Assembly (NCBI GenBank): GCA_045613785.1 | Contig: JAZLBQ010000004.1 | Location: 32,001 to 96,000 of the forward strand | DNA from: Candidatus Enterousia sp. | GTDB taxonomy: Bacteria > Pseudomonadota > Alphaproteobacteria > Rs-D84 | DNA: 64,000 bases | Reading direction: 5' to 3' | Part shown: one piece after another, positions 2,062 through 64,000 of the stretch | How positions within the stretch are numbered: position 1 is the first letter of the stretch | How the letters are laid out: every line of letters begins with the position of its first letter | The notes under the pieces: model-generated | Told to the model about the DNA's origin: nothing | What the model saw: only the letters and a program-made list of their open reading frames with translations | The model's database searches: none | Position numbers and translations under genes: made by a program

Positions 2062-2130
2062 TCTCTATAATTTATATTTATTATTTCAATTATATCACAA
2101 ATGGGACAAAATGTGATATACTTAAAAGCA

Positions 2131-6469: not shown

Positions 6470-7185
6470 GGTTGTTTTGTAAATTTATTGGATTTTTGTT
6501 CCCGCCGGCGTGTCCATTATGTGATACGCCGGTATCAACACATGGTGAACTGTGCGAAACGTGTTGGACGTCAATAAATTGGATTGATGGCTCGCATTGT
6601 GTTAAATGTGGTTATCCGTTTCTGTGTGATATTGATTTTGATGCGGCACCAATGTGCCCGGTGTGTGCTGTGGGTAAAGGTGAGCTGGATTGGATTCGCT
6701 GTGCGTGTGTTTATGATGATGCGTCCAGGGCGGTGGTTTTGCCGTTTAAACATTGTGGGAAAATAAATCATTACCGTTTTATGTCACGTGCAATGATGTG
6801 GGCGTTGCAAGACGTTGACGTTGATGCTGATATTGTTATGCCTGTGCCGCTGGCGAACCGTCGTTTATTTCATCGTGGTTATAATCAGGCCACATTATTG
6901 GCACGCCCAATTGCCCGTGTGTTGGGTGTGCGTATGGATGTAGATTCTGTTCGTCGAAAATTCAGACCTGATATGGGGCATAAAAATTCTTGTCAACGGT
7001 TTCAAAATATTCACGGAGTCTTTTCAGTTGTTCGTCCAGACAAGATTCGTGGTCGTAAAATTTTATTAGTTGATGACGTTATGACAACTGGTGCAACTTT
7101 TTCAGAATTGCGTCGTGTTTTGATGGCAAACGGTGCAGCTGCAGTATATGGGGTAACATTTTGTCGTGTTGTCCGAACTATATAA
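6463..7185 (+). CDS. comF: ComF-family protein (double zinc ribbon + PRTase domain)
   Basis: FPPACPLC, CxxC repeats, PVPL..RRLFHRGYNQA, LVDDVMTTGAT. Confidence 0.93.
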   Translation: MVRLFCKFIGFLFPPACPLCDTPVSTHGELCETCWTSINWIDGSHCVKCGYPFLCDIDFDAAPMCPVCAVGKGELDWIRCACVYDDASRAVVLPFKHCGKINHYRFMSRAMMWALQDVDVDADIVMPVPLANRRLFHRGYNQATLLARPIARVLGVRMDVDSVRRKFRPDMGHKNSCQRFQNIHGVFSVVRPDKIRGRKILLVDDVMTTGATFSELRRVLMANGAAAVYGVTFCRVVRTI

Positions 7186-10756: not shown

Positions 10757-11485
10757 ATGTCAGATAAATTGATAGAGCGTCGTGTTCTTCAAGCGTATCA
10801 GTGTGACCGCTTTGGAAATGTTCGTCCGTTGATATTGATGAACGAATTACAGTCCATTGCGGACAGGCACGCTGAAATCTTGGGGTGTGGTCGCACATAT
10901 TGTCTAGAGAACGGGCTGGGCTGGGTTGTGACCTATTACCTGGTCGATATCATAGAATTGCCAACCGAAGGCGAAGAGTTGACTTTTTCCACCTGGCCAT
11001 CATGCCAAGACGCATTGCGTGCAACACGTGATTTTGAAATTCATGGGGCGGATGGTCGTTTGATGGTTCGTGCGACTTCTCAGTGGATTTTGATTGATAT
11101 CGAACGTCGTCGTCCGTTGCCGCTGGCAAAGCATTTATCTCCAGATGTTGTTGTTCCAACCCGTGCATATGGTTGTGCATTTGAAAAGTTTTCAGACTTT
11201 GAAACGACCAAGACGCATGTTATGAAATGTCGATTTGATGATATTGATGTGAATCAGCATATAAACAATGCTGTGTATGCTGTCTGGGCAACAGAAAGTG
11301 TTGGTTATGTTTATCGCACAAATCATAAATTGAAAAAGATAGACATAAATTTCAAAAAAGAGATAAATCCAGATACTCCTGAAATTTGTATTGATGTTGC
11401 GATTGAAGGTCTGGTATCACGTCATAAAATCAGAACTGGCGAAACAGAACATGCTGTTGTGATTTGTCATTGGGAAGAAATATAA
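10757..11485 (+). CDS. acyl-ACP thioesterase (double hotdog)
   Basis: SQWILID...RRP, DIDVNQHINNAVY. Confidence 0.9.
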   Translation: MSDKLIERRVLQAYQCDRFGNVRPLILMNELQSIADRHAEILGCGRTYCLENGLGWVVTYYLVDIIELPTEGEELTFSTWPSCQDALRATRDFEIHGADGRLMVRATSQWILIDIERRRPLPLAKHLSPDVVVPTRAYGCAFEKFSDFETTKTHVMKCRFDDIDVNQHINNAVYAVWATESVGYVYRTNHKLKKIDINFKKEINPDTPEICIDVAIEGLVSRHKIRTGETEHAVVICHWEEI

Positions 11486-11501
11486 GTGATAAATATAATT
11501 G

Positions 11502-11529
11502 AAAAAAACCGCCAATCGGCGGTTTTTTT
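11502..11529. terminator. bidirectional intrinsic terminator between thioesterase and rpmH
   Basis: A7-CCGCC-AATC-GGCGG-T7. Confidence 0.9.
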
Positions 11530-11546
11530 AATAACCTGTGTGCATC

Positions 11547-11699
11547 TTAGTTTGCAGCATTTACTGCCAAACGTTTACGACCTGCTGCACGACGACGGTT
11601 CAGAACATCACGACCGCCTGCAGTTGCCATTCTTGCACGAAAACCGTGTGTACGAACACGACGTGTTTTAGATGGTTGATAAGTGCGTTTTGTTGCCAT
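11547..11699 (-). CDS. rpmH: 50S ribosomal protein L34 (not in ORF track)
   Basis: Hand translation [50 protein letters not shown]. Confidence 0.97.
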
Positions 11700-11827
11700 A
11701 ACTTAAATCCTTGGTTCTTTTTCTTTCTTTTTTGTGTTCCAGTGTGCACCGAGCAGCATCATCAACACCCTGGAAAAATCCGTTTGTGCCTATATTTAAC
11801 CATACGTTTTATAAAAACGCAACCTTT

Positions 11828-11923
11828 TTATTTAGATTTTATCAATCCAAATTTTTTCAGGGCTTCCAACGTCAAATAGTATATAAACAGGCCGGTAAAC
11901 AGTTTATAAAAAGGTAAAAACAT
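11828..11923 (-). CDS. 31-aa small hydrophobic peptide (candidate small membrane protein)
   Basis: MFLPFYKLFTGLFIYYLTLEALKKFGLIKSK*; AAGGA SD upstream; directly follows the 56-aa ORF. Confidence 0.5.
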   Translation of the reverse strand: MFLPFYKLFTGLFIYYLTLEALKKFGLIKSK

Positions 11924-11943
11924 AATTGTGTTCCTTGTCTTGT

Positions 11944-12114
11944 TTACTTTGTTTTTTGTTTTATTGACCGAATCAGATTGTTGGCAGCTTCAATTGCATC
12001 AATCATTCTGTCTAATATCCAGATTTGGCATGTTAGTTGTGCGTTTTTTTGAGAGTTTTTCATATCCTGAACAAACTGTCTTACTTCAATTAAATCTTGT
12101 CTAAATTTTCCCAT
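11944..12114 (-). CDS. 56-aa orphan helical protein with basic tail
   Basis: [56 protein letters not shown]. Confidence 0.55.
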
Positions 12115-12260
12115 TTTGTTTTGTCTTTTCTAATAAATTTATCCTGAAACAGGATATCACAAACCTGTGTTTTGTCAATCTATTTTTTGGGCTTTATTTC
12201 TTGACCAAAAGCCCTAAAATCTGCTATGTTTTGTATGCTATAAACATAGGAAAGGTAAGT

Positions 12261-15014
12261 ATGTCAGAAAACATCAATGAAGTAAACGAAACACGTGTTC
12301 CACAGTCGTCTTTGGAACACGAAATGCGGACCAGTTTTTTAGACTATGCGATGTCGGTTATTGTTGACCGTGCGTTGCCTGATGTCCGTGACGGATGTAA
12401 GCCTGTGCATCGTCGAATTTTGTATGTTATGAACGATGTTGCACCTGCGACCAAGCCAACGGTAAAGTCTGCACGTATTGTCGGTGATGTGATGGGTAAA
12501 TATCACCCACACGGTGACAGTTCGATTTACGAAGCAATGGTTCGTATGGGGCAAGACTTTTCGATGGGCGAAATGCTTGTCCAAGGACAGGGTAATTTTG
12601 GTTCTCGTGACGGGGACAAGGCTGCGGCTATGCGTTATACTGAGGCACGCCTTTCAAAACTGGGTGCATCGCTTATGGACGATATGGACAAAGACACTGT
12701 TGACTGGCAGCCGAACTTTGATGGCTCTTTACAAGAACCAGTTGTCTTGCCTGCTAAATTTCCAAATTTCTTGGTAAATGGTGGATCTGGTATTGCTGTT
12801 GGTATGGCGACTAACGTTCCGACATATAACCTGGGTGAAATCTGCAATGGTATTTTGGCTGTTCTAGATAATCGCAATTTAACAGACGATGAATTGTTTG
12901 CCATTATCCCTGGGCCTGATTTCCCGACAGGTGCGATGATTATGGGGCACGCCGGTGCATACAAGGCACACACTACAGGTCGTGGTTCAATTATTATTCG
13001 TTCAAAAACTCATATCGAAGACTTTCGTGATCATCAGGCAATTATTGTTGATGAAATCCCATATCAGGTCAACAAGGCACAAATGATTATCAAAATTGCC
13101 GAACTGATAAAGGACAAAAGAATCGAAGGCATTTCTGAAATTCGTGACGAATCGTCCAAAGAGGGCTTGCGTATAGTTATTGAATTAAAGCGTGATGCGA
13201 TTGCGGACGTTGTCTTGAATCACTTGTTCCAATACACGGAAATGCAGACAAATTTCCCAGTCAACATGATGGCGTTGAATCGTGGTCGTCCAATGTTGTT
13301 CAATGTCCGTGGTGTTTTGGATGCCTTTATTGACTTCCGGGCAGAAGTTATACGTCGTCGCACAATCTTTGACTTGAACAAGGCACGTAATCGTGCACAC
13401 ACATTGTTGGGTTTGTCTGTTGCGGTTGGAAACTTGGACGAAGTCATTGAATTGATTAAATCCAGTGCTAATCCAGAGGCTGCCCGTGAAGCTTTGATTT
13501 CACGTGGTTGGCGTGCATCAGATATTGAATCTTATATTCAGTTGATTGATGATCCGAACACAGAATACAAAGATGGTATGTTCTATATGTCCGAAGACCA
13601 GGCACGTGCAATACTTGAATTGCAGTTGCATCGTTTGACAGGTCTGGAACGTGATAAAATTCACGACGATTTAACAAATCTGGGTGCGGTTATTCGTGAT
13701 TTGTTAGAAATTTTGGGCAGTCATGAACGTATTATTCAGATTATTCGTGAAGAAACAATTGCTGTCCGAGATAATTGGGCATCGCCTCGTCGCACAGAAA
13801 TTTCAGATGCAGAAATCGATATTGATATCGAAGATTTAATTGCTCGTGAAGATATGGTTGTAACAGTATCTAATACAGGTTATATCAAACGTGTTGCACT
13901 GGATACCTATCGTGCCCAGAAGCGTGGTGGCAAGGGACGTAATGCAATGGCAACCAAAGACGACGATTATGTTGTTCAAGTGTTTGTTGCAAATACCCAC
14001 ACACCATTGTTGTTCTTTAGCTCTTTGGGCTTGTGTTATAAATTAAAGACCTATAAATTACCAGAAGCAACGGCTGCTGCCAAGGGGCGTCCATTGGTAA
14101 ACTTATTACCATTGCAACCTGGTGAAACGATTACTGCAATCCTGCCTGTATCTGAAGAGGACGCAGCCCGTGCAGCAGAGTCTGGCAAAGAACATTTCTT
14201 GATGTTTGCAACAGCGTCTGGCACAGTCCGTCGCAACCGTATGTCGGATTTTGACTCAATTCGTGCCAACGGCAAGATAGCGATGAAACTGGACGAAGGC
14301 GACAGTCTGATTTCTGTATTGCCATGCACCGAAGACCAAGATGTATTCTTGGCAACATATCGTGGCCGCAGTATCCGATTCCCAGTTCCTGAAATCCGTA
14401 TTTTTGCAGGCCGCAACTCGACAGGTGTTCGTGGTATAACATTGGGCAAAGATGATCGTATCATCGGTATGGCAATGCTGAACCGTGGCGAAGCCGACAG
14501 TGCTGTTCGTGCGGCGTATATCAAGCAATCACGTGCTGCCCGTCGTGCAGAAACAGGAATCGAAGAAGAAGCAGACGCTGACGAAGAAACAACGACATTA
14601 GTCTTAGATGATGCCAAGATGGCTCAGATGGCTGCGAACGAAGAATTCATTTTAACTATTTCAGAAAATGGATTTGGTAAACGCACCAGTTCGTATGAAT
14701 ATCGTCTGACACACCGTGGCGGTGGCGGATTTACGAATATCAAACTGGGTGGCAAGAATACTGCTGTTGCAGGATCTTTCCCTGTTGCTGATGATCACGA
14801 TATCATTATGGTAACAGATGGTGGCAAGATTATCCGCACACCTGTCCGTGATGTTCGTATTGCAGGTCGTTCGACTGCTGGCGTAACACTGTTCCGCACG
14901 GCTGAAAACGAACGTGTTGTATCTGCGATTTCAATCGAAGGTTCTTCTGATGAAGAATCAGAAACCGCATCAGAAAGCGAAACAGTGGTTGAAGCTCAGG
15001 AAACAGCAGAATAA
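12261..15014 (+). CDS. gyrA: DNA gyrase subunit A
   Basis: YHPHGDS, AAMRYTE, GyrA-box QKRGGKG; ATG at 12261 after GGAAAGG. Confidence 0.98.
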
Positions 15015-17175: not shown

Positions 17176-18378
17176 TTATTTCGTATGTGCACGCATTTGA
17201 CGTAATTGTTTCAAGTTTTTTGCGTGTGCAGCCTTCATCGACTTAGATGCTTGGTCGTATTTGCTGTGGCTAGACAGTTTTTGTTTTGCAGCCATACGTT
17301 TTTGCAGACCGACACCATTAACGCCAATTTCTTCGATGTATTTTGCAAATGCTTGTTGTTGTGCATCGTTTAATTTTTGTTCGCTGTTCAGTGCGTCCAA
17401 GATAATGCTTTTGCCTTCGTAAATACGGCTCATAGTCATTGCATGTGCAACACGTTCGACAGACATACCGTCTGGGATTTGGAATACGCCACGTTCGACT
17501 TGTTTACGAACCTTGTTATACAACTTATCACGTGCATTTTGTCCAATCAAAATATTTAAAGAACTGTTGCAGCACGCATTGATGCGAGCGATTTCAGCCA
17601 TCTGTTCAGTTGTTGGTGTTGGTTTCAGTTTTTGTTCGGCCTTATGTGTAAGCACAGGTTTTGAAGGTGTGGTTGCAGGCTGTGAACCACGCACAACTTT
17701 CCAGCCGTCATTATTTGCACTCACTGGTTGAATTTTCAGTGCGTTGTTATTTGTTGTTTTTATGACTTTCTGTGTCTTTTGTTTTGTCTGGTTGTCATGA
17801 TTTTCTGTTTTCAGGCTTGAACAAGTGTCCAAAGACAATGCTGTTGCAATAGTTGCTGCCAAAATCACAATTGATGATGTTGCTACTGCAACTTGGGTTA
17901 TTCTTTCACGACGAAATGTATCTGTGGCCAATGGCTTTTTTTGTTCTGTCTGGGCAGGGTTGTTTTGTGGCTTGGCTTCTTCTTTCTTTTTGCCCCAGCC
18001 AAAAAATCCTTTGATTTTATTGGTTGTTCGTTCCCACAGTGAAGTATTGGTCTTGTCTTGTAATTTTATTGCATCTGGTTTCATGCCACGCATTATACAC
18101 AGATTTCTCATTGCGGCATGTGCGGCTTCTGTATAAATGCCTTGTTCGTTTTTTCCGCATTTGATAATCAAATCTTGCACCAGATTTACGATTTCTGGAT
18201 CGTTCACATTAAATTCTACATCATTGTTTGCAATGCAGCCAATAACACTGGTTGTCAACAGGGTGTTGGTGTCGTAATAGCCATTGCTTAGCCCTCTTTT
18301 TTCTAAAACTGTTTCCTTGATATAGTATTCCAAACAGTCTTTTGAAATCCAAAAAACCGCATATCTAAAATCGTTCAT
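17176..18378 (-). CDS. orphan 400-aa protein with central TM segment and basic tail (C-terminal part of the 673-aa ORF, with its own promoter and SD)
   Basis: Start MNDFRY at 18378, AAGGG SD, TTGACT-17-TATCAT promoter; ends QMRAHTK. Confidence 0.65.
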   Translation of the reverse strand: MNDFRYAVFWISKDCLEYYIKETVLEKRGLSNGYYDTNTLLTTSVIGCIANNDVEFNVNDPEIVNLVQDLIIKCGKNEQGIYTEAAHAAMRNLCIMRGMKPDAIKLQDKTNTSLWERTTNKIKGFFGWGKKKEEAKPQNNPAQTEQKKPLATDTFRRERITQVAVATSSIVILAATIATALSLDTCSSLKTENHDNQTKQKTQKVIKTTNNNALKIQPVSANNDGWKVVRGSQPATTPSKPVLTHKAEQKLKPTPTTEQMAEIARINACCNSSLNILIGQNARDKLYNKVRKQVERGVFQIPDGMSVERVAHAMTMSRIYEGKSIILDALNSEQKLNDAQQQAFAKYIEEIGVNGVGLQKRMAAKQKLSSHSKYDQASKSMKAAHAKNLKQLRQMRAHTK

Positions 18379-19197
18379 ATTAAACCCTTGGTATTTTTTT
18401 AGTCGATTGACAATGATATATACAAAAAAAGGTGCAGTCAACAAATTTTGTAGGCTATCTATTTTTGAAACGTTGTGATTGTCTTCTTGCGCGTTCGCAT
18501 TTGTAGGTAGGCGACAAATGTTATCTGAAAAACTTGTGATAACAGTGTTTATTTTGTTTTTCTCGCAGGGGCTTTGACCATTGAATAAAATGTTTTCCGG
18601 TCGAAATACTACATAGGATATCGAGCCTGGGTCTTCTTCGTTGTTTACATAATGAAAGCCGTCAAATCCATAGTTCTCCCAATAATGTATCATTCGTTGA
18701 AAGCACAGATGGTATCGGTTGATTTCATCTGCACTGAACACAGCAGTTTTATGTGTGTTTATTGGATATAAATTATCAGACTTTAATTCGTTATGTACGC
18801 TTTTGATTTTCATTACAAAAGGCTCTTGAAATATTGTGTTATAAAATTTTGGTATGCCTTGGAATTTGAGTTCTTCGAATATGTGATATAAAAACATCAT
18901 CTTATAGTAATTTATATCGTGTTCTGCACAGTGGTCAATAATCTGGTAAGTCTGTTTCAGGTTTAATTTTACATTGATAATTTGTGGTTGTAAAACATAA
19001 CTGTTGTTAAAGTCAGTTTGTCCCAGTTTTTTGTATTGTCGCAAAGTGTCCAAACATTCATGCAAGGGTGTTGGGCCAAACCCAAGTATTTCTTCAGCTG
19101 CACGTTTAGTTCCAAAATGCGACAGGGGGTAAAATCGGTCAAATTTACGAAAAGTTCCGTGAAAAAAATCTGTGTCTTTGTGTAAAAACTCTACCAT
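18379..19197 (-). CDS. ADP-ribosyltransferase-like (ART-PolyVal-type) domain, reading in frame into the downstream gene
   Basis: FFHGT, SHFGT..AA, GFDGFHYVNNEEDPGSISYVVFRPENI. Confidence 0.65.
18413..18441 (-). promoter_or_regulatory. sigma70-type promoter inside the fused ORF
   Basis: TTGACT-N17-TATCAT on the minus strand. Confidence 0.65.
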
Positions 19198-38748: not shown

Positions 38749-39090
38749 TTATTTTAGGTTCAGTTTTTTATACAACGCCTCTGGCGTTTGAATCCATGGG
38801 GATTTTAGTTTTATCATTGTCTTGGTCAACTGCACACAGGTAAAACATAATTCAGTATTTACTGCTGTGTTTAATTGGCCAGCAAAGACCAAGAACTGCC
38901 ACCCGTGCTTTTGCAAGATAAATAAATCACGCAATTTTAATTCTATTTTTTTAATGTTATTGTGCTTTACAAATTGATATAGAATCATTTTGTTTTTATG
39001 AACGTAAATAGGTGCGACGTGCTTAAAATTCTTGCAGAACAGTTTTGCCAAAAATTTATTAGATTTATTTGAAAATGCAATTATAAACAT
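38749..39090 (-). CDS. conserved-looking hypothetical protein (H...CFTCV...TPEALY; possibly permuted papain-like)
   Basis: FKHV, CFTCVQLTK, PWIQTPEALYKKL motifs. Confidence 0.6.
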   Translation of the reverse strand: MFIIAFSNKSNKFLAKLFCKNFKHVAPIYVHKNKMILYQFVKHNNIKKIELKLRDLFILQKHGWQFLVFAGQLNTAVNTELCFTCVQLTKTMIKLKSPWIQTPEALYKKLNLK

Positions 39091-39143: not shown

Positions 39144-39488
39144 TTATTCAATCCAGCCACGCTGACGAGCATTTTGTTCCAGTTCACGCATTGCGTTTCG
39201 CCACTGTTCTGCTGCACGATTTTCTGCCCAAATATGTTGATGAGGAGCTCGTCTTTTGTCGCCAAATTTTTTCATTACTACTAATTGTTCTTCGGTCAAT
39301 TTTCCTGCCAGATATAATTTTGTGATCATTGATTCTACATCTAAAATTTCGCATGGTCTGCGTGTTTGAGACGAACGATTCCGCATAAAAGTATTGTTCT
39401 GAACAGCTTTTGAATACAAAAACCAAAACCATAATTGTTCTGCATTTTGAAATTTTTCAGTCTGAATCATAGGCATTGTTTTGGTCAT
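39144..39488 (-). CDS. conserved-looking alphaproteobacterial hypothetical protein
   Basis: FQNAEQLWFWF...RPCE..D...W...L...GWIE; strong AAGGAG SD; hairpin at 39120-39141. Confidence 0.75.
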   Translation of the reverse strand: MTKTMPMIQTEKFQNAEQLWFWFLYSKAVQNNTFMRNRSSQTRRPCEILDVESMITKLYLAGKLTEEQLVVMKKFGDKRRAPHQHIWAENRAAEQWRNAMRELEQNARQRGWIE

Positions 39489-39753
39489 TTTTCTTTCTCC
39501 TTTTTTTTATATTTCCCACCTAGCACTATCTATAGTATAAGAAAAGATTCCTGTAAAACACTACAACCAATGGTTGAAGTTCGAATCGAAAAACAGATTC
39601 GGTTCTGAAAATTGGATTGTGCTTTGCGAATCGAATTTTTTCTTTGTTTCATATTTTTTATAAAAAAAAGTGTGCCAACTGGCACACGGTTTTCTATTTA
39701 TCTTAATCAAAGTCTTATGTGAAATTTTTCTCCTTTGTAAATATTGTTAAATT

Positions 39754-39779
39754 AAAACCCGCCGATGGCGGGTTTGTTT
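39754..39779 (-). terminator. terminator of the virB8-10 operon
   Basis: AAACCCGCC-GAT-GGCGGGTTT immediately after the virB10 stop. Confidence 0.85.
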
Positions 39780-39780
39780 A

Positions 39781-42183
39781 TTACAGAATTGGTGGGAAGC
39801 AATCACCGCCTGTTTCAGGGCAACAGTTAAATCCTTGTTCGCCCATATCGGTGTATATTTCTCCTGGACAGCAACCATTTGCATCTGGTGCAATATCGCC
39901 TTCGCACATTATTTGTTCAACGACTTCCTCGACCGCTGGTTTCTCAGGTTTCTCAAATGGATTTTCAATTGCACCTGTTTCTTCGTCGTATTTCAGGCCC
40001 AACACCTGTTCATTATATGCTTGCTGCCCCTGATCTGCAACATATGCAATACTGTTCTGATTGCTTGTTGATTGCTGATTTTGGAATACAGCTTCCTGCT
40101 TTGCATTATTTATTGCCTTATATTGACTAGACTGGCAATAGAACAACACTGTTCTGTAATCTAGGCCTGCGTTGTATATCTCTTCTGCACTTGCTGTAAC
40201 CTTGCCTGTGCTTAAATCGCAATACTGTGCCAAATTAAATGAACGCACCTGACCAACCCATTCTTCCCCTGACTGGTCAATATTCACAGAGTTTGCAACG
40301 CTATTGTAATTAAACCTATTTTGTTGTAATGATTTACTGTAATAACTTTCCATCTTACAGCTTTTGCCACCGTCTGGACACACAACAATCAAGTCCTCTG
40401 GGGAATAGACTGTGATACGTGTTCCTGCTGCGATTGTAAACGGTGGAACAGTGTTATCCATCATATCGACCAACAGCTTTTGTGCAACCTGATTCCAGGC
40501 AGTAATGATTTCATTTTTTGCCAGTTCTGATGAACGCACAGTTCCACTTTGAACGACTGTGTTGTTGTCCAAATCGATTTGATTTACAAACGCATCGCTG
40601 ACAGGAGCAATCAAATTCACCGCTGCTGGCACAATCGCTGTCAACATTGGCATAATAAATTGTTCCATATAATCAGTGCTGCCACGTCCTGGCACGCCAA
40701 CACGTCCTTGGGCATCACCTGCAAAAGGCTGATTTCCTTGATTGTTAAAGTTAAATTCAACACCATCTGGTCGTATAAACTGATACCAGTTTATTTGCAT
40801 ACGTCCAATTGCCTTGTATGGGCCTGGCAAATCACCTGTCACATATCCCAGCATCAAAGTTCCTGTTGGGATAATAATATTACGTCCGTCGTCTGAATAA
40901 ACGTTTCTATCAACAGTTGCACGAACGGGCAGGGGGCGTCCATTTTTGAAAACTTCTGCATCGGCTCGAACTTCAGATACAATAGTTGCAGGAATTGGCT
41001 TGTATTGACGCAAAATGAAACTGCGGTCATACGGTTGTGATGCAACAACGCCATCACCCGAAGTGCCAAATATTACTTCCGTAGTTTCTTTTAGCTTTAG
41101 TCCACCAAAAGCTTCCATACCGTTTGCAGTCAGGCGACCTGCACCACGACTGTTCATTACGACTGCATTTGCTTCATCCGAGTCCAGTTGGCGTGCACGA
41201 TTTACAACCTTTATTGCAGGTGCATTAGACAGTTCTGGGATTTTGCCATCCCATGTTGCAGCAAAAACGATATGGTCTGCATCTGTTCCTATCTTTTTAC
41301 CTTTGTTATCAGTGATAATACCATTGTCTGGATTGTATGTTCCTGTTGGTTTTTCGCAGTTTTTATCTGAAAATGGGTGAAATTTATATGTTCCACCATC
41401 GGGTTTTATCCAACCGATTTGGACGCCAAAATTATTATAACCTGGGAAAGCAAAGTCCGTGCATCCATCAGGGATTTCAATTTTTTCAGTTTTTGCTGTC
41501 TTTGTCACAGGTTTTTCAATCTTTACTGACGGAGAAATTGTTTCGACGTTCTTTTTAATTTCTTCTTTGACAGGCTCTGGTTCTGGCTTTGCTTCAATCA
41601 CAGGCTCTGGTTCTGGCTCTGGTTCTGGCACGATGACAGGTTCTGGGATTGGCTCAGGTTTTTTTTCAACGACTGGTGAAACAGCCCCCAAGGTCAGAAC
41701 AATTTTCGAAGTCTTTTTCATTGCATCAGTTTCATCTGCTTTGTGCCAGTCAACGAACACAGGAACTTGTTCTGTTGCCATTGGTGCAGTTGGTGCATAT
41801 GAAACAATCACCCCACAGGCTAGATTTTCGTTTATCTGTCCCATTTCAGTGCAAGTTCCTTTGACATCAAATCCCTTGATGTCCTTGTGGCGACGAACAG
41901 AAATCACCTTAACAGGAGCTGTTGCAGAAATCTTGATTGTTTCAGTTTTTTTCTGTCCGATTGTCGTTTCTGCCCAGTTTATCATATCAGGGGAAATGAC
42001 AATATCTACTGATCCGCTATCAGTGCTAGAAATATCTGATTTGCTTGATTTTTTATTATTTCCACTCAGCAGCAAGGTCAACAATATCAGCACCACAACA
42101 AATGCAGCCGCCATCAACAACCACTGCACCCGTTTTGGTGTATTTTGTCGCATTTCTGAAAACTGTTCTTTGAAACTAGCCAT
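39781..42183 (-). CDS. virB10: VirB10/TrbI-like T4SS core protein with extra domains (800 aa)
   Basis: TM, PE-repeat linker, IPATIVSEV...RATVDRNVYS..GRNIIIPTGT.MLG, RPDG, DAQGRVGVPG, TIAAGTRITV. Confidence 0.88.
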   Translation of the reverse strand: MASFKEQFSEMRQNTPKRVQWLLMAAAFVVVLILLTLLLSGNNKKSSKSDISSTDSGSVDIVISPDMINWAETTIGQKKTETIKISATAPVKVISVRRHKDIKGFDVKGTCTEMGQINENLACGVIVSYAPTAPMATEQVPVFVDWHKADETDAMKKTSKIVLTLGAVSPVVEKKPEPIPEPVIVPEPEPEPEPVIEAKPEPEPVKEEIKKNVETISPSVKIEKPVTKTAKTEKIEIPDGCTDFAFPGYNNFGVQIGWIKPDGGTYKFHPFSDKNCEKPTGTYNPDNGIITDNKGKKIGTDADHIVFAATWDGKIPELSNAPAIKVVNRARQLDSDEANAVVMNSRGAGRLTANGMEAFGGLKLKETTEVIFGTSGDGVVASQPYDRSFILRQYKPIPATIVSEVRADAEVFKNGRPLPVRATVDRNVYSDDGRNIIIPTGTLMLGYVTGDLPGPYKAIGRMQINWYQFIRPDGVEFNFNNQGNQPFAGDAQGRVGVPGRGSTDYMEQFIMPMLTAIVPAAVNLIAPVSDAFVNQIDLDNNTVVQSGTVRSSELAKNEIITAWNQVAQKLLVDMMDNTVPPFTIAAGTRITVYSPEDLIVVCPDGGKSCKMESYYSKSLQQNRFNYNSVANSVNIDQSGEEWVGQVRSFNLAQYCDLSTGKVTASAEEIYNAGLDYRTVLFYCQSSQYKAINNAKQEAVFQNQQSTSNQNSIAYVADQGQQAYNEQVLGLKYDEETGAIENPFEKPEKPAVEEVVEQIMCEGDIAPDANGCCPGEIYTDMGEQGFNCCPETGGDCFPPIL

Positions 42184-42201
42184 CCCTCAAATCCACTAAT
42201 T

Positions 42202-43758
42202 TTATTGCATTCTTACAACGCTACAACTTGTTCCGCTAAATTTTAACAACTTGTCGCATAATGTTTGTGCTGTGTCAATATCTGCCAATGGGCCAATACG
42301 CAAGCGATACTGGCGTGCTGTTGTTGAGTCTGCACCTAATTCTCCGACACCTTGTTCATCAACTGCAAAGAAAACCATATTTTTATAAGGTGTCAACAAT
42401 CCTTGACCATTTTCACCGCTGAATTTAGCCAACAACATTGTCCAATAATCGTCCAAGGCCTTGACAGAAGTATCTGATTTTAATTCTACGGCAACACCAA
42501 CCTGATTACTTGAAATCAGTGGGATGTTGGTTTGTGGTAAATAAGCCCCTGCTGTATTTCGTTGTGTTGGCAACATGTTTACAACACTTCCTGACGAGCG
42601 AGGCATTGTCTGTGGTGCAGTAAATCCTGCTGGCATATAATATCCTGCACCAGTTGTCTGATTGACAGTTTGATTATTTTCAACGAATACAGGTGTCCCG
42701 GTATATGGTGTTCCCATACTCATTGCAGCCATACTGTCAGTATATGCGATGTTGCTTAGTGATTGTCCAGACAGCATACTCTGTGCAACATTTGCCTCTG
42801 CCAGTGCCATCACAGATGCGGTATCAGCAATCAAGAACGGTTTTTCACGTTTTTTGATGCAAACAATACGTTGTCCGCTACGCAGAACCATATCGCCCAC
42901 GGCCTCTACAATCAACAAGCGACCGTCTTCACCATCTGTGCGGAATCCAACAGGAGATTCGCCACCTTCTACCAACAGTGAAACAACAGGGCGTTGCGTC
43001 ATTGCGATAACCTTGTCGCCAAAATCAATGTATGTGAAGATACGATCACGCCAAACACGCTCTGGTGCGATTACATAGTCGTCTGGGTTTGGAACAAAGA
43101 TGTCTAAATCGAAACGAAATTCCGAAGGATCGATTTTCATTGATTTAATCCAGCCATAGTCTTCGCCATCAACACCGACTGTATTTGTTGCGTTGCTTGA
43201 AGTTGCGGCCTTTTTGAATATAGAACTTGCCCCACCAGAAACAGGAACGTTTCCTGCGGTTGGCAGTGCAACATTGCCGTCCAGGACTACATCGACTTGT
43301 GAATATGTAATTTCACTGGAATTAGATGGTTCGCTACGCAAATAGAAGATATATTTATTTCCTGATTTGCCTGTTACAATCATATTAGTATCAGACCCTT
43401 GGTTAGAACCGACTGGTGAAATAAACATTGTCTGACCGCCCTGAGTCGCATCAATGTCAAACAAGTCTTGGTTTCCAACCATTGCATCTGCAATCTGTTC
43501 ACCATTTGGCAATGTAACCATAGTTACCATTCCATTACGCAGTTTGATTGGTAAAACACTGCCTGCAGACCAAGCCAACTGTGCATATCCTGGTTTTGTG
43601 CTACCGCTGGCCATATTTGCCATTGGGTTATCCCATGCCTCTTGCACACCGTATTCTGTTATTGCAGAATATGCCGGCAACGTCAACAGACCTGCCAGGC
43701 AAAAAACAGACATATTAAATCTTAGTGCTTTTACGAAACTCATACCAATCCTTCCCAT
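42202..43758 (-). CDS. virB9: VirB9/TrbG-like T4SS core protein with C-terminal SPOR-like domain
   Basis: DTNMIVTGKSGNKYIFYL, IAPERVWRDRIFTYIDF, LRSGQRIVCI; C-terminal YRLRIGPL...AQTLCDKL...CSVV. Confidence 0.85.
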   Translation of the reverse strand: MGRIGMSFVKALRFNMSVFCLAGLLTLPAYSAITEYGVQEAWDNPMANMASGSTKPGYAQLAWSAGSVLPIKLRNGMVTMVTLPNGEQIADAMVGNQDLFDIDATQGGQTMFISPVGSNQGSDTNMIVTGKSGNKYIFYLRSEPSNSSEITYSQVDVVLDGNVALPTAGNVPVSGGASSIFKKAATSSNATNTVGVDGEDYGWIKSMKIDPSEFRFDLDIFVPNPDDYVIAPERVWRDRIFTYIDFGDKVIAMTQRPVVSLLVEGGESPVGFRTDGEDGRLLIVEAVGDMVLRSGQRIVCIKKREKPFLIADTASVMALAEANVAQSMLSGQSLSNIAYTDSMAAMSMGTPYTGTPVFVENNQTVNQTTGAGYYMPAGFTAPQTMPRSSGSVVNMLPTQRNTAGAYLPQTNIPLISSNQVGVAVELKSDTSVKALDDYWTMLLAKFSGENGQGLLTPYKNMVFFAVDEQGVGELGADSTTARQYRLRIGPLADIDTAQTLCDKLLKFSGTSCSVVRMQ

Positions 43759-43771
43759 TTTTTATGTTGTT

Positions 43772-44443
43772 TTATTCTGTCTCACGAAAACCTGTATTTA
43801 AAGGGTCTCCATTGTCAGATATAACCTTGTATTCAGATACACGCAGTCCCAATGGATTTTCGATACGGTCTGCCCATTTGATTTGCGTTTTATCATTATC
43901 TTCTAATTTCAACTTTATTGTATAATCTTTTGTGATTGTATGTCCAGCATTATCAGTGCAGAAATATCTAAATTTTACCTGATATTGATCTTCGCTTGCC
44001 AAATATATCGGTGCACCATCAAAAATAACAGGGCATTGAAACTCAAAGTCAGGCATTCCTGCCATCATTGCGATGAACATATCGGTGTTTGCAAACTCGC
44101 CATAAACAGCATCTGTTGACATAATGCGAACTGCACCGTCGTTGCTGTTCCATTTTTTATGCATTGCCTTGGCATTTGTGAAAACTTCGTTTCTGTGTTG
44201 GATATATTCACGAACAAAGGCTTTTTTGTATCGATCCAGATTTTCGCTTTTTGGTTGCATTTGAATCAATCGAACGTCTTGGTCGTCACGGACAGCGGTT
44301 GCCAAAAAGAACACTTGTGGACGATTCAATGGGAACATTTTTACCAGTGTCACAGTCATTACGCCTAACGTCACCAAAGCAGCAGCCAGCACAAAAGTCA
44401 TCAGTCTGGATAATAAAATTGGTGGTTGTATGCGGTTCTGCAC
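43772..44443 (-). CDS. virB8: VirB8-like T4SS inner membrane protein
   Basis: Single TM, FVREYIQHRN, ENPLGLRVSEY; GTG start with GAGAGGA SD. Confidence 0.88.
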   Translation of the reverse strand: MQNRIQPPILLSRLMTFVLAAALVTLGVMTVTLVKMFPLNRPQVFFLATAVRDDQDVRLIQMQPKSENLDRYKKAFVREYIQHRNEVFTNAKAMHKKWNSNDGAVRIMSTDAVYGEFANTDMFIAMMAGMPDFEFQCPVIFDGAPIYLASEDQYQVKFRYFCTDNAGHTITKDYTIKLKLEDNDKTQIKWADRIENPLGLRVSEYKVISDNGDPLNTGFRETE

Positions 44444-44685
44444 GATGTTCCTCTCTCTTTAATTAAAGTGATTGTAGAAAAAAACAAATAGTCTGTGCAA
44501 GAAAAAATTTGCAATAACAAAAAACTAAAACAGGAAAAGTTATAAAAGGTGTTAAAAATATAGTTGCAAGGTAAAGAGAAAAATATTATAATATTTCCAC
44601 TTGATTTTTTATATAAGTGTGCTATTCTGTCGCAGACTATTATGGTGGTGTGCGGCACATCGACAGGTATCAGATATGAACACAC

Positions 44686-44759
44686 AGGGGCATAGTTCAA
44701 CGGTAGAATATCGGTCTCCAAAACCGCGGATGAGGGTTCGATTCCTTCTGCCCCTGCCA
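44686..44759 (+). tRNA. tRNA-Trp(CCA)
   Basis: AGGGGCATAGTTCAACGGTAGAATATCGGTCT-CCA-AAACCGCGGATGAGGGTTCGATTCCTTCTGCCCCTGCCA; canonical position before secE. Confidence 0.96.
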
Positions 44760-44800
44760 GGAATAGTCAGGGTTAAATTACGTAATTTAGGCAGTTTTTT

Positions 44801-44980
44801 ATGAAAAAAATACTGGATTTTTTTAAGTCAGTTCGCAGTGAATGGTTCAAGATTGTATGGCCATCACGTGACAGTGTCGTGCGTGCAACAATTATGATAT
44901 TGGTATTTTCCGGGCTGGCGGCCTTGTTCTTTTTTGTTGTTGACAGTGTCTTGAATGCGATTGTTGGTTGGATTTTCTAA
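44801..44980 (+). CDS. secE: preprotein translocase subunit SecE (59 aa, not in ORF track)
   Basis: MKKILDFFKSVRSEWFKIVWPSRDSVVRATIMILVFSGLAALFFFVVDSVLNAIVGWIF*. Confidence 0.95.
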   Translation: MKKILDFFKSVRSEWFKIVWPSRDSVVRATIMILVFSGLAALFFFVVDSVLNAIVGWIF

Positions 44981-45000
44981 ATCAGGCAAAGGAAGCAAAG

Positions 45001-45534
45001 ATGGAAGAAAAGATGCAGTGGTTTGTTGTAAATGTTCATACAGGGTGCGAAGATAAGGTTGCACGTGGTTTACGTGAACAGATTGACAAGCGTCGTTTGA
45101 ATGCGTTGTTTGGCGAAATTATGGTTCCAACACGTGAAGTTATCGAAATCAAGGCCGGCAAGCGTGTCAAAGCTGAAAGAAAGTTTTTTCCAGGTTATAT
45201 CGTTGTTCAAATGGTTATGAACAATGAAACCTTTACCTTGGTTCGTCAGATTCCTCAGGTTGTTATGTTTTTGGGTGCACGCAACAAGCCGATTGCAGTT
45301 AGCGAGGCCGAAGCCCACCGTCTGATGAAACAGGTCGAAGAAGGTGCTGTTGCAATCGAAGACGTTGAATACGAAGTTGGACAGGAAGTTCATGTTATCG
45401 ATGGTCCGTTTGCGGGCTTTAATGGAATTGCGTCCGAAGTTGATAATGTAAAACAAAAGATGACAGTAACAGTTCTGGTGTTTGGTCGTGAAACCAGCAT
45501 GGAATTGGAATTTGACCAGGTAGAAAAGGTCTAA
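45001..45534 (+). CDS. nusG: transcription antitermination factor NusG
   Basis: WFVVNVHTGCE, FFPGYIVV, GPFAGFNG, VFGRET. Confidence 0.97.
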   Translation: MEEKMQWFVVNVHTGCEDKVARGLREQIDKRRLNALFGEIMVPTREVIEIKAGKRVKAERKFFPGYIVVQMVMNNETFTLVRQIPQVVMFLGARNKPIAVSEAEAHRLMKQVEEGAVAIEDVEYEVGQEVHVIDGPFAGFNGIASEVDNVKQKMTVTVLVFGRETSMELEFDQVEKV

Positions 45535-61293: not shown

Positions 61294-62025
61294 ATGACAC
61301 GATACAAAGTTATTTTAGAATATGATGGCACAGATTTAATTGGCTGGCAGGAAAATCGCCAAGGGGATTCTGTTCAATCATTAGTCAAAGATGCGATTGA
61401 AAAATTCTGTGGTGCTCGTCCTGATGTTGTTGGTGCTGGTCGCACAGATTCAGGCGTTCACGCTGTTGCGATGACTGCGCATTTTGACATAGACGGCACA
61501 CATTCTGCCCAAACTGTTATGCATGCCTTAAATTTTTATCTGGTTCAAAGTCCTGTTCGGGTTTTGTGTTGTGAAATTGTTCCTGATGATTTTAATGCAC
61601 GCTTTGATTGTGTTGCACGTCATTATAAATACATTGTTCTAAATCGTGGTGCATCACCAGTATTGCAAAAGAACCGTGTGTATTGGGTGCCACGACCATT
61701 GAATGTTGATGCAATGCGAAGTGCGGTGGCACGTCTAATTGGTAATCATGATTTTACCAGTTTTCGTGCATCAGAATGTCAGGCAAAATCCCCTGTTAAA
61801 ACATTAGATAAAATTGAAATCACGCAACACGGCGATGAAATAATATTTGAGTTTTCTGCCCGTTCATTTTTGCATCACATGGTTCGCAACATTGTTGGCA
61901 CGTTGATTGAAATAGGACTGGGCAAGTCTTTGGATATTGATGAAATATTGGCTGCAAAAAATCGTTCTGCGGCAGGTCCAACCGCCCCCGCATCAGGCTT
62001 GTATTTTATCCGTGCAGATTATTAG
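61294..62025 (+). CDS. truA: tRNA pseudouridine(38-40) synthase
   Basis: EYDGT, AGRTDSGVHA, FLHHMVR, TAPASGL. Confidence 0.97.
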   Translation: MTRYKVILEYDGTDLIGWQENRQGDSVQSLVKDAIEKFCGARPDVVGAGRTDSGVHAVAMTAHFDIDGTHSAQTVMHALNFYLVQSPVRVLCCEIVPDDFNARFDCVARHYKYIVLNRGASPVLQKNRVYWVPRPLNVDAMRSAVARLIGNHDFTSFRASECQAKSPVKTLDKIEITQHGDEIIFEFSARSFLHHMVRNIVGTLIEIGLGKSLDIDEILAAKNRSAAGPTAPASGLYFIRADY

Positions 62026-63941
62026 TTCCAGCGGCGTTTTGTAGTTGTGTATTTAACACGTCCGCCAGGATAAATTACAAATCCGCCTCGCAGAATTTTA
62101 TGACCGCAATTTTCTGATTTTATATCAAAGTATGACACAATATATCTGACGCTGTCGTCATTGCATAACGATTTAATGTTGTTCATCAGTGGAACAAACT
62201 TTTGAATATATACGATATCGTTATATCGATAGACGCCTTTGTTGTGCTTGTATCGTTTGTTTGGTGTGTTTGTGGCTTCTCCGTTAAATTTCTTCCAGGT
62301 TTCAAATGCAAAATAGTGATTTGATGAACGGGATTTATTAAATTCTAGTTTGCCGTTATCATCGACAAACGCAACCAGTTCATTATCGTCAGTCGTCCAG
62401 AAAATTGGCTTTGGATTTGTCTGGACTAAAACAATTCCGATTCCAACAAACAGTGCAAATAAAACGCAGTTTATTTTCATCTTTATATTTCGAATTAAAA
62501 TCAGACACATAAAACCGACAATAAAGCAAATCATTGCATTGTTTGGAATGTGTGGCATATCTATGTTTGTCAATGGTAATTCTGAAATGCTGCGTGCGAT
62601 ATTCAGTGTTGTATCGTAAATCAAATGAGCCAGTTTTATTGGGGATAATATTCCAAACATTCCTGTAATTGTTCCAATCATAACCAGTGGCATAATTGCA
62701 ACCGAAAATACAGGCAGTAAAATCAGGTTGCCAATCAAACTGTATGTTGGCAATGTTCCAAAGTGTGCCGCCACAAATGGGGCGGTAAACAGTGTGGCCA
62801 CCAGTGAAGTCAAAAGCATTGCATAAATTATTTTCAAGATTTTGTTTTCTGGCATCTTTGGTTTGATTTCATAATACAGCCAAATCAATCCGAATACTGC
62901 AGCAAACGACAGTTGAAATCCTGCCTGCATAACATAGTGTGGGTTTATCAAGAAAGTTGCACAAAATGCCAGTGCTATATTTCGCATTGAAAACGCACTG
63001 CGTCCAAATATAAAGGCCATAAATACCAATGTTGTCATCAAGAAAGCACGAATTGTTGCGACATCACAGCCGGACAAAAATAAATATCCAACCAGCCCAA
63101 TCCACGCACATAATATTCCTGGAATTTTAGCCGGCACCCGTCGCACAATCCATGGCACAGCCCGAAACAAGGAAACGAAAATCAAAAACAACCAACCACC
63201 AACCAATGTCATGTGAAATCCACTGATTGACCAAACGTGGCCAATGCCACTGCTAACCCAGATAGCAGCATCGTTTTCTGGAATTACGTTTTTATAGCCT
63301 AATACTAAACTGTCAACCAGAAAAGAATTTGTGTTGTTGTGAATATTGTTTCTGAACTTGTTCAGACTGTATTTAGTGTTATTTTCAATTACCTGAATGT
63401 TGTTTGCGTATCCTGTCGCACTTAAATTATTAAAATATGCCCAGCGTGCATAGTCAAATGTTTCAGGTGCTGTTGCGGCTGATGGTTTGAATAATCCAAC
63501 ATTTGCACTAACTACGTCACCAATCTGGGGCAGGGCAATATTATCACCAACAGAAACTCGCACGATTGCATCGCCAGTTCCAGCTTTGATATCTTCTGCA
63601 TTGGTGCTCAGATAAATTCTGCTTTTATCATCTGTAAAATCAATTTTCTGAACTGTTCCAGTGATGTCCAGATTATGTAAGTTGCGTTTTATAACAGGTG
63701 TGTTGACAAGATTTGTATAAGCATTCGCATAACAAAAACCGAAAGCAAAAATAAATATTGCCCGAACCAGGGTTGGAATTTTATTTACGGTCGCAAGTGT
63801 GATTAAAATCAGTGATAAAATTCCGGGGCAAAATAAACCAGGTTCTGTTGTCAGTGAAAAATACAAAGCCGCCCCTGCGGCCATCAGAAATGGCACGAAC
63901 AGAAATCTGTTTTGTTGTTGAAGATTCAACCATTTTCGCAT
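62022..63941 (-). CDS. comEC: ComEC/Rec2 competence channel
   Basis: SGIGHVWSISGFH, IRAFLM, GFQLSF, N-terminal OB-like domain; likely start MRKW at 63941. Confidence 0.93.
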   Translation of the reverse strand: MRKWLNLQQQNRFLFVPFLMAAGAALYFSLTTEPGLFCPGILSLILITLATVNKIPTLVRAIFIFAFGFCYANAYTNLVNTPVIKRNLHNLDITGTVQKIDFTDDKSRIYLSTNAEDIKAGTGDAIVRVSVGDNIALPQIGDVVSANVGLFKPSAATAPETFDYARWAYFNNLSATGYANNIQVIENNTKYSLNKFRNNIHNNTNSFLVDSLVLGYKNVIPENDAAIWVSSGIGHVWSISGFHMTLVGGWLFLIFVSLFRAVPWIVRRVPAKIPGILCAWIGLVGYLFLSGCDVATIRAFLMTTLVFMAFIFGRSAFSMRNIALAFCATFLINPHYVMQAGFQLSFAAVFGLIWLYYEIKPKMPENKILKIIYAMLLTSLVATLFTAPFVAAHFGTLPTYSLIGNLILLPVFSVAIMPLVMIGTITGMFGILSPIKLAHLIYDTTLNIARSISELPLTNIDMPHIPNNAMICFIVGFMCLILIRNIKMKINCVLFALFVGIGIVLVQTNPKPIFWTTDDNELVAFVDDNGKLEFNKSRSSNHYFAFETWKKFNGEATNTPNKRYKHNKGVYRYNDIVYIQKFVPLMNNIKSLCNDDSVRYIVSYFDIKSENCGHKILRGGFVIYPGGRVKYTTTKRRWN

Positions 63942-64000
63942 GGAAAAAGTATAGGAATTTATTAGATTGCATATCAATGAAATTTTTCGTATGATGAAAG

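Follow-up and report, generated by a model that had tools for sequence, protein, structure and literature searches.

A dispersed, vertically inherited type IVA secretion system with a VirB9-SPOR fusion in Candidatus Enterousia and the order Rs-D84

In a stretch of 64,000 nucleotides from Candidatus Enterousia sp. (assembly GCA_045613785.1, contig JAZLBQ010000004.1, positions 32,001 to 96,000; hereafter the window), the genes for VirB8, VirB9 and VirB10 form a compact operon. Here, we describe this operon together with the other parts of a type IV secretion system (T4SS), which are scattered over the same genome and conserved throughout the alphaproteobacterial order Rs-D84. Because of its order-wide presence, its synteny, the lack of a relaxase match in the three families searched and the position of the recombinases on other contigs, the T4SS is a vertically inherited core system and not a mobile element or an integrative and conjugative element (ICE). 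On balance, we favor the reading that VirB8, VirB9 and VirB10 span the envelope as the core of a type IVA system that is complete and fixed in the chromosome and would export effectors to a partner cell. Its lineage-specific features are a fusion of VirB9 to a SPOR domain and an 800-residue VirB10 with a cysteine-rich tail.

An operon encoding VirB8, VirB9 and VirB10

The segment 39781-44443 of the window is filled exactly by three closely packed, co-directional open reading frames (ORFs) on the minus strand (Table 1). The products of all three pass the Pfam cut-offs. VirB8 matches Pfam VirB8 over residues 13-207 (E 7.9e-11, 42.6 bits, cut-off 23.2), VirB9 matches CagX/VirB9 over residues 60-303 (E 5.4e-22, 79 bits, cut-off 34.2) and VirB10 matches TrbI/VirB10 (E 2.2e-17, 64 bits, cut-off 35). 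The NCBIfam models VirB9 (E 1.1e-14), T4SS_VirB10 (E 3.3e-16) and ComB10 (E 7.3e-12) were matched as well, all with scores far under their curated cut-offs, and VirB9 and VirB10 are therefore divergent. A sequence search of the Protein Data Bank (PDB) returned only CagY and ComB10 for VirB10 (E about 1e-3; ComB10 1.6e-3) and no entry for VirB9 or VirB8, the latter even at E 1.

An earlier note on this DNA had described a compact virB8-virB9-virB10 operon with its own terminator, back-to-back with tRNA-Trp, secE and nusG and with no relaxase, integrase, virB4, virB11 or virD4 nearby. This description holds. Besides the family matches of the three proteins, two terminator-like hairpins follow virB10, and the three divergent neighbors are located at 44686-45534. 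The 34 large window ORFs scanned are housekeeping genes, and no T4SS ATPase, coupling protein, relaxase or integrase was matched among them.

The remaining subunits are scattered over the genome

The genome searched (G000, Candidatus Enterousia) comprises 1,044,118 bp in 26 contigs and is 96.5% complete. Its T4SS genes are dispersed among housekeeping genes as six or more islets, namely virB8-virB9-virB10, five VirB6-like genes, virB3-virB4, virD4, virB11, and a VirB7-like gene followed by two VirB8-like ones. The guess that the missing parts would be found scattered in other housekeeping contexts was thus borne out for virB3-virB4, virD4 and virB11. VirB4 matches PF03135 (E 4.4e-12), R388 TrwK (E 3e-32) and TIGR00929, the last at E 3.9e-111 and 372.6 bits, under the cut-off of 643. 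VirD4 carries three coupling-protein domains (PF02534 at E 3.2e-54, TrwB_AAD_bind and TraG-D_C). The Walker A and Walker B motifs are intact in both proteins. The VirB11-type ATPase (TIGR02788, E 2.1e-41) has an intact Walker A motif and no Walker B motif by the strict pattern.

The secreted 203-amino-acid (aa) ORF that follows virB4 (G000:C26:59412-60023(-); L008:7412-8023) was considered as VirB5 and rejected. It is unlike the plasmid VirB5 and resembles a DUF922-type protein with an HExxH motif. One DUF922 (putative Zn protease) cluster stands among its Atlas neighbors (0.91), and ORFs of 205-206 aa follow virB4 in two other species. The ORF might be a stand-in for a cell-wall-opening enzyme of the system. 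About 2 kb from virB3-virB4, two adjacent paralogous glycine-rich proteins of 327 and 334 aa are encoded (G000:C26:55296-57292(-); L008:3296-5292), which match no family.

A tandem array of candidate VirB6 proteins

The note had also placed three virB6-like genes about 36 kb from the operon. These are real ORFs for polytopic membrane proteins, but the array to which they belong has five members (G000:C4:28810-35420), of which three touch the window and two lie just outside it. Four members, of 431, 497, 395 and 422 aa, are on the minus strand and one of 439 aa is divergent. All five show a weak but consistent relationship to one another (BLASTP E 5.5e-9 to about 1e-3); the 395-aa paralog matches the others at E 7e-9 to 0.018, and the 439-aa and 395-aa paralogs align over 283 residues at E 5.5e-9. 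Orthologues of the 395-aa paralog were found in all 31 genomes of the family, and in other families it gave weak tandem matches in larger ORFs of 430-1013 aa.

By sequence family, VirB6 was not detected: a genome-wide search with Pfam TrbL (PF04610) was negative at E <= 1, and none of the Pfam and NCBIfam models recognizes any of the five candidates. The 422-aa protein has 805 relatives at E <= 0.001; among the best 120 of these, the named ones are all called hypothetical protein, with no precomputed Pfam domain. We modeled this protein with AlphaFold2 from 45 sequences (pLDDT 59.6, pTM 0.50) and compared the model with 350,542 PDB chains using Foldseek. Ranks 1-7 and 9 were taken by the R388 stalk (TrwJ/VirB5-TrwI/VirB6) at E 0.011-0.21 and probability 0.99-1.0; judging from their length, the matched chains would be the VirB6 subunit. 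In VIA-align, the R388 stalk reached Z 14.2, 14.1 and 13.8 over 255-259 of 261-272 residues, followed by Legionella DotA at Z 12.0, with unrelated helical designs at or below 10.4. Neighbors of the protein in the ESM Atlas are automatically named TrbL/VirB6 and include CtnDOT_TraJ (0.91) and a TrbL-bearing cluster (0.90). Speaking against the assignment are the low confidence of the model, which has no Foldseek match at E <= 0.001, and the fact that helical proteins can reach a VIA-align Z of about 14 by chance. Taken together, the modeled fold and the Atlas neighbors make it quite likely that the five array proteins are VirB6-like.

As a VirB6 reference, we also tried a 453-aa protein of the Erythrobacter aureus plasmid NZ_CP031358 (L142, 95000-125000). 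The gene at the usual VirB6 position of this plasmid encodes a soluble, alanine-rich, coiled-coil-like protein and not a membrane protein. It matches none of the five candidates and was discarded.

An islet with VirB7-like and VirB8-like proteins

Using phmmer, we searched all 7377 ORFs of the genome with the subunits of the plasmid system that is the nearest named relative. Directly after bamA on contig C7, this identified a VirB7-like lipoprotein of 48 aa (phmmer E 6.6e-5; BLASTP E 1e-7, 43% identity), homologous to the one encoded immediately upstream of virB8, the VirB7 position, in the Erythrobacter plasmid. Within the genus, the identity of the lipoprotein amounts to 83-94%; it drops to 70% in other genera and to 52-61% in other families. 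Its gene always stands just upstream of the gene for a protein that we call p234.

p234 itself scores near but under the cut-off of Pfam VirB8 (E 1.8e-4, 21.9 bits, cut-off 23.2). As single sequences, p234 and the product of the following gene, p213, gave weak or no signal against the VirB8 alignment of the order, and an alignment-against-alignment comparison was needed. By hhalign, the 20-sequence alignment of p234 matched with a probability of 90.9 and E 1.1e-6 over 149 columns, and p213 matched with a probability of 87.9 and E 3.2e-6. The AlphaFold2 model of p213 (pLDDT 82.3, pTM 0.71) found 11 structures at E <= 0.001 in Foldseek, all of them VirB8-family chains or R388 assemblies containing the VirB8 homologue TrwG. 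Bartonella and Brucella VirB8 and pKM101 TraE are among the fold matches, and Rickettsia typhi VirB8-like, CagV and DotI appear just below the threshold. Thus, p213 is predicted to have a VirB8 fold.

The fourth gene closes the islet and encodes the secreted p272 (G000:C7:92931-93749(+); L143:6931-7749), 63-78% identical in the genus and of no detectable family. As a candidate for VirB9 it was rejected, matching neither the VirB9 profile nor any solved structure.

Lineage-specific features of VirB9 and VirB10

Behind the CagX/VirB9 domain, VirB9 continues into a tail that is conserved order-wide in the alignment. In the window's copy, Pfam SPOR matches residues 478-516 under the cut-off (E 0.0016); across the order, the match was obtained in five of six VirB9 orthologues, with a best E of 1.3e-5. 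The VirB9 proteins of plasmids align with residues 37-307 only, bar two Helicobacter suis rows, in which the match continues into the adjacent ComB10 gene.

VirB10 is about twice its usual size. An N-terminal membrane anchor is followed by an extra domain, a Pro/Glu-rich linker, the TrbI barrel (residues 392-598) and a long C-terminal extension. The end of the extension is formed by a module of about 40 aa with six cysteines (window 39781-39910, residues about 759-799), which contains two CC pairs, ends in CFPP and matches no Pfam family. Across 13 VirB10 orthologues of the family, the module hardly changes, in contrast to the variable linker that precedes it; the VirB10 of other Rs-D84 families does not carry it. 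Three further proteins of the genome (80, 195 and 733 aa; Table 1), secreted or membrane-bound and not otherwise related, end in the module as well.

Conservation and inheritance

VirB10 was found in 200 of 201 sampled genomes of the order, covering 190 of 190 high-quality genomes and 23 of 23 genera, and the sole miss is a genome that is 72% complete. VirB4 is present as a single gene in each of 46 genomes, in one of them split over two contigs. The corresponding numbers are 60 of 61 for VirD4 and 42 of 46 for VirB11, or 37 of 37 for VirB11 in high-quality genomes. The presence of the system is thus not patchy. When the VirB9 alignment was compared with 185,579 species genomes, 374 stretches were matched, 319 of which encode relatives; the best 80 are all gut metagenome-assembled genomes, many of them of Candidatus Enterousia sp., with the closest 98% identical.

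The neighborhood is likewise conserved. In another genus of the family, the order kefB-lspA-yidC-orf-orf-virB10-9-8/tRNA-Trp-nusG is collinear with the window from kefB to rplA. Five other families keep the virB8-virB9-virB10 triad among differing neighbors, with a gene in the VirB8 position preceding virB9, and there virD4, virB4 and virB11 lie tens of kb off or on other contigs. In one family (f3), virB11 directly follows virB10 on the opposite strand (L028, G002:C4:14000-33000, at 9079-12540), a layout intermediate between contiguous and scattered.

No match to the relaxase families Relaxase (PF03432), TrwC (PF08751) or MobA_MobL (PF03389) was obtained in the 96.5%-complete genome at E <= 1, other relaxase families not having been searched. 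The two tyrosine recombinases of the genome are on other contigs, C24 and C12. Vertical inheritance, as the note had proposed it, is thus supported by distribution and synteny alike, and no complete ICE was found. That the genes belong to a conjugative element (an ICE or integrated plasmid, remnant or active) used for conjugation is, in our view, very improbable. The nearest named relatives are indeed conjugation-type megaplasmid clusters (VirB4 31-33%, VirB9 33-38% identical), and in the Erythrobacter aureus plasmid MobA/MobL, virB2-B3-B4-B5, B8-B9-B10-B11 and virD4 stand together as a single block. However, the Enterousia genes are distributed among six or more housekeeping contexts, lack a match to the three relaxase families, occur in essentially every genome of the order and keep their synteny within the family. 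Moreover, VirB9 found a match in only 21 of 72,556 plasmids, and the composition of the operon (G+C of its bins 0.417-0.423; window range 0.345-0.441) is like that of its flanks.

Scatter and divergence could also be those of a decaying, non-functional relic, left by an ancestral T4SS in a shrinking genome. All NCBIfam matches fall under the curated cut-offs, sequence searches with VirB8 and VirB9 reach no solved structure, and a pilin and VirB5 were not found. Against decay, the reading frames are all open in nearly all genomes listed, with very few internal stops in about 150 VirB10 rows, and the Walker motifs named above are intact. VirD4 is about 50% and VirB11 about 50-57% identical across families whose genomes, of 0.5-1.3 Mb, keep little that is dispensable, and both the 48-aa lipoprotein and the cysteine-rich tail are strongly conserved. 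We regard a relic as highly unlikely.

Proposed function

Enterousia has been placed in Rs-D84, an order of gut bacteria that have genomes of less than about 1 Mb, lack the synthesis of amino acids, nucleotides and lipids as well as standard transporters, and are proposed to be obligate symbionts or parasites (PMC12306168). We regard contact-dependent export of substrates to a partner cell as the most likely role of the T4SS, because VirD4 and VirB11 are kept order-wide, no relaxase of the three families was found, the bacterium is metabolically dependent and, as a weak indication, ankyrin-repeat genes are present. In this scheme, VirD4 would recruit the substrates and VirB4 and VirB11 would supply the energy. 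VirB3 and the VirB6 and VirB8 proteins would form the inner-membrane channel, and VirB7, VirB9 and VirB10 the outer-membrane core, which the SPOR domain of VirB9 may tie to peptidoglycan. Through this machine, protein effectors would pass by contact into a partner cell, possibly a protist, an animal cell or another bacterium, on which the metabolically crippled bacterium depends.

Ankyrin-repeat proteins are possible effector candidates. They were matched in 12 of 13 genomes of the family at E <= 0.001 and above the cut-off in 6 of 13. In the Enterousia genome, two of them are in tandem (307 and 205 aa) and a third has 191 aa (G000:C7:26681-28070(+), C4:134603-134779(-), C1:4293-4460(+)). A further protein of about 1250 aa has weak ankyrin matches, and its counterparts in most genera of the family have 1120-1330 aa.

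The earlier note had left the choice between host or cell interaction and DNA uptake. Of the two, export is favored over uptake by the conserved VirD4 and VirB11. A machine for DNA uptake or release, comparable to Helicobacter ComB or the gonococcal island system and feeding a nucleotide auxotroph or serving gene exchange, is unlikely, although several observations would fit it. VirB10 matches the ComB10 model, ComB10 is one of the two solved structures it finds, no relaxase of the three families was detected, and nucleotide synthesis is among the capacities given as lacking in Rs-D84 (PMC12306168). The order-wide conservation of VirD4 and VirB11 argues against uptake, as does the better score of the VirB10 model compared with the ComB10 model. 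In addition, the usual uptake route is already present in the genome in the form of ComEC, a ComF-like protein, a type IV pilus ATPase and a PilO-like gene.

Several points weigh against effector export by a complete system. The pilin family Pfam TrbC/VirB2 (PF04956) is not matched anywhere in the genome at E <= 1, and phmmer with the Erythrobacter plasmid proteins found neither VirB2 nor VirB5 there, small divergent proteins being easily missed; the system may lack a surface structure, or the genes for one may have diverged beyond detection. The relaxase search covered only three families. Ankyrin repeats also match in 5 of 14 free-living control genomes, and an ATP/ADP translocase was found in none of 13 genomes, a result of little weight as the control was silent too. 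In one gut metatranscriptome, which contains 0.34 of the sampled words, near-identical short contigs cover all three operon genes and both gene junctions; next to none of the words occur in two further runs from that study. Such contigs attest to presence in the RNA library but not to transcription, as they may stem from carried-over DNA, and stretches that they leave uncovered carry no information.

Genomic setting of the operon

The operon ends in a first terminator-like hairpin directly behind the virB10 stop codon, for which the T-run rule of the hairpin scan was met by the plus-strand reading only and the minus strand was read directly. A second one follows further downstream (Table 1). 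Upstream, the intergenic region towards tRNA-Trp is the presumed promoter region of the operon. A consensus match at 9 of 12 positions on the minus strand (44499-44471) is the sole support for a promoter, and the count of promoter-like sites in this region is not above that of shuffled sequence. Beyond nusG, the upstream side continues with rplK-rplA-rplJ-rplL-rpoB-rpoC. Downstream of virB10 are two small conserved ORFs and then the convergent genes yidC-lspA-kefB.

Both small ORFs (39144-39488(-), 114 aa; 38749-39090(-), 113 aa) match no family, and the terminators stand between them and virB10. The 114-aa product is 65% identical to the one at the same place in another genus. Elsewhere in the window, an ORF of 673 aa (17176-19197(-)) that has a single membrane segment and matches no family lies between an APH (phosphotransferase-family) gene and a weaker APH-like ORF. 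ComEC (62022-63977(-)) and a ComF-type phosphoribosyltransferase (6463-7185(+)) are also encoded in the window. A PilB-like ATPase and a PilO-like gene (G000:C26:112446-116047) are separate and belong to a type IV pilus. ComEC, ComF and the PilO/PilB-like proteins look like a conventional DNA-uptake/type IV pilus set beside the T4SS.

Table 1 Features of the operon region, the VirB6-like genes in the window and T4SS-related genes on other contigs. Positions are those of the window unless a contig is named.
Feature	Position	Strand	Description
VirB6-like paralog (candidate)	3-785	-	C-terminal 261 codons of 395 aa; starts left of window, G000:C4:32785
VirB6-like paralog (candidate)	793-2061	-	422 aa; AlphaFold2, Foldseek, VIA-align, ESM Atlas
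VirB6-like paralog (candidate)	2101-3420	+	439 aa, divergent; about 6 hydrophobic segments
Second terminator-like hairpin	39670-39687	-	7 pairs, 5 G-C, then TTTTTTTT
Terminator-like hairpin	39755-39775	-	Directly 3' of virB10 stop; stem then TTTTAATTT
virB10	39781-42183	-	800 aa, expanded; Pfam TrbI
virB9 with C-terminal SPOR-like domain	42202-43758	-	518 aa, signal peptide; Pfam CagX
virB8	43772-44443	-	223 aa, GTG start, bitopic inner-membrane subunit; Pfam VirB8
Intergenic region virB8/tRNA-Trp	44444-44685	.	Divergent; presumed operon promoter region
tRNA-Trp	44686-44759		Divergent neighbor of virB8
secE	44801-44980		Divergent neighbor
nusG	44968-45534		Divergent neighbor
virB3, virB4	Contig C26		98 aa and 809 aa; then 203-aa ORF, rmlC, rmlD
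virD4	Contig C26, about 45 kb past virB3-virB4		749 aa, alone; between rRNA methyltransferase gene and sspB
virB11-type ATPase gene	Start of contig C3		331 aa; adjoins lipoprotein gene and FKBP gene
Proteins sharing the cysteine-rich end	G000:C26:28815-29057(-), C26:29079-29666(-), C3:106208-108409(+)

Relatives outside the order and wider reading

Among plasmids, the best relatives are encoded on megaplasmids of Sphingosinicella, Erythrobacter and Microvirga. VirB4 matched at E <= 1e-10 in 61 of 301 alphaproteobacterial genomes sampled. A VirB4 that is 35-42% identical over its full length is encoded in about two dozen genomes that do not belong to the order and measure 0.9-2.5 Mb, and the other matches, mostly in large genomes, are at 22-32% identity. 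The public names of these out-of-order relatives are Alphaproteobacteria bacterium, Holosporales bacterium or VirB4 (10 sequences looked up, 3 of them without a record). In a quick VirB4 tree, three Enterousia rows form a long branch (1.66 changes per site) as sister to 13 small-genome rows, separate from a Holosporales-labeled group, and the position of the plasmid row is uncertain; the tree has 27 rows, is without named Rickettsia rvh, ComB or Trb sequences, and its long branches were flagged as unreliable. The note's view of a system confined to its lineage did not hold up, as related scattered systems with the VirB9-SPOR fusion are present in other small-genome alphaproteobacteria.

Tentatively, Rs-D84 and several small-genome, mostly gut-dwelling alphaproteobacterial lineages may share a second domesticated T4SS lineage beside the Rickettsiales rvh system, one that would be central to an epibiotic or parasitic life in the gut. 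Its marks would be a VirB9-SPOR fusion fastening the core to peptidoglycan, multiplied VirB6 and VirB8 and the lack of a pilus. If this is true, the machine would deliver effectors into the partner cell that supplies the bacterium's metabolites.

Enterousia and other Rs-D84 members occur widely in the gut of ruminants, horses, birds, mice and people. An order-wide T4SS is a first concrete candidate for the means by which Rs-D84 exploit a partner, and it offers handles for experiments, with VirD4 as effector bait and VirB9 and VirB10 as imaging targets. Parts of the system are already known insofar as automated annotation labels them, e.g., as 'TrbI/VirB10 family protein'. In the literature searched, whose coverage did not extend to the 2023 Enterousia paper (doi 10.1134/S0026261723603780) or to supplements, we found no description of the system as a whole, of its fixation throughout the order, of the VirB9-SPOR fusion or of the rvh-like traits. 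No paper in it mentions type IV secretion together with Rs-D84 or RF32, or VirB9 together with a SPOR domain, and the available text of the Rs-D84 paper uses the words 'secretion' and 'T4SS' zero times (PMC12306168).

Comparison with known systems

Of the traits of type IVA (VirB/VirD4, P-type) systems, VirB4, the VirB8-VirB9-VirB10 core, VirB11 and VirD4 are present in the Enterousia genome, and a VirB6/TrbL protein recognizable by sequence family is not. The best named sequence relatives are the minimised conjugative VirB/VirD4 systems of alphaproteobacterial megaplasmids (Erythrobacter aureus NZ_CP031358, Sphingosinicella and Microvirga), which have the same subunit set of B3, B4, B7-like, B8, B9, B10, B11 and D4. 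The likeness to the Erythrobacter plasmid extends to the lipoprotein upstream of virB8. In contrast to the dispersed Enterousia genes, that plasmid has its genes in a single contiguous block together with those for a MobA/MobL relaxase, VirB2 and VirB5, and the VirB9 proteins of the megaplasmid systems are without the SPOR tail.

With Helicobacter ComB, the Enterousia system shares a VirB-type core without a relaxase match and a VirB10 weakly like ComB10. ComB is not known to require VirD4 or VirB11, both of which Enterousia possesses. The gene order is also different, and Enterousia has a ComEC/ComF/type IV pilus route besides. The Enterousia system does not belong to ComB.

A further parallel in layout is provided by the scattered T4SS of four genomes from other orders or families (G257, G277, G306 and G398), some relatives of which are labeled Holosporales bacterium. 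Their VirB4 is 35-42% identical over the full length and their VirB9 44-48%, and virB9 is either on another contig than virB4 or 12 kb away from it. In G257, G306 and G398, the VirB9 ORFs have 504-596 aa and a second stretch matches the SPOR tail, whereas in G277 residues 33-312 alone of a 605-aa ORF are matched.

The rvh system has been called a rickettsial signature; duplicated RvhB8, RvhB9 and RvhB4, multicopy RvhB6 and no VirB5 analogue are listed as its hallmarks (PMC11077975). Like rvh, the Enterousia T4SS is a chromosomal, vertically inherited P-type system of a reduced alphaproteobacterial genome, with its genes in scattered islets. VirB6 would be multicopy here too, as five tandem paralogs, provided that the VirB6 assignment is correct, and tandem VirB6-like copies with larger ORFs also occur in other families of the order. 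The extra VirB8-family paralogs p213 and p234 add to the likeness at the level of the VirB8 family. Furthermore, VirD4 and VirB11 are retained and no relaxase of the three families was found. The searches above did not find a VirB5 analogue, although a small divergent one is easily missed. Unlike rvh, VirB4 is single copy in the Enterousia genome and in the 46 order genomes, and VirB9 is single copy in Enterousia by tblastn, p272 not being a VirB9. The VirB6-like proteins of the family are small (395-497 aa), virB11 and virD4 are detached from virB8-virB9-virB10, VirB9 has its SPOR domain and VirB10 its 800 aa and cysteine-rich tail, and Enterousia belongs to Rs-D84 and not to the Rickettsiales. 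Compared by features, without named rvh sequences, the Enterousia T4SS is rvh-like in layout and not a member of rvh. Several features of the layout regarded as a signature of the Rickettsiales, namely scattered genes, VirB8 paralogs and, if the VirB6 assignment is correct, multicopy VirB6, accordingly occur outside that order as well.

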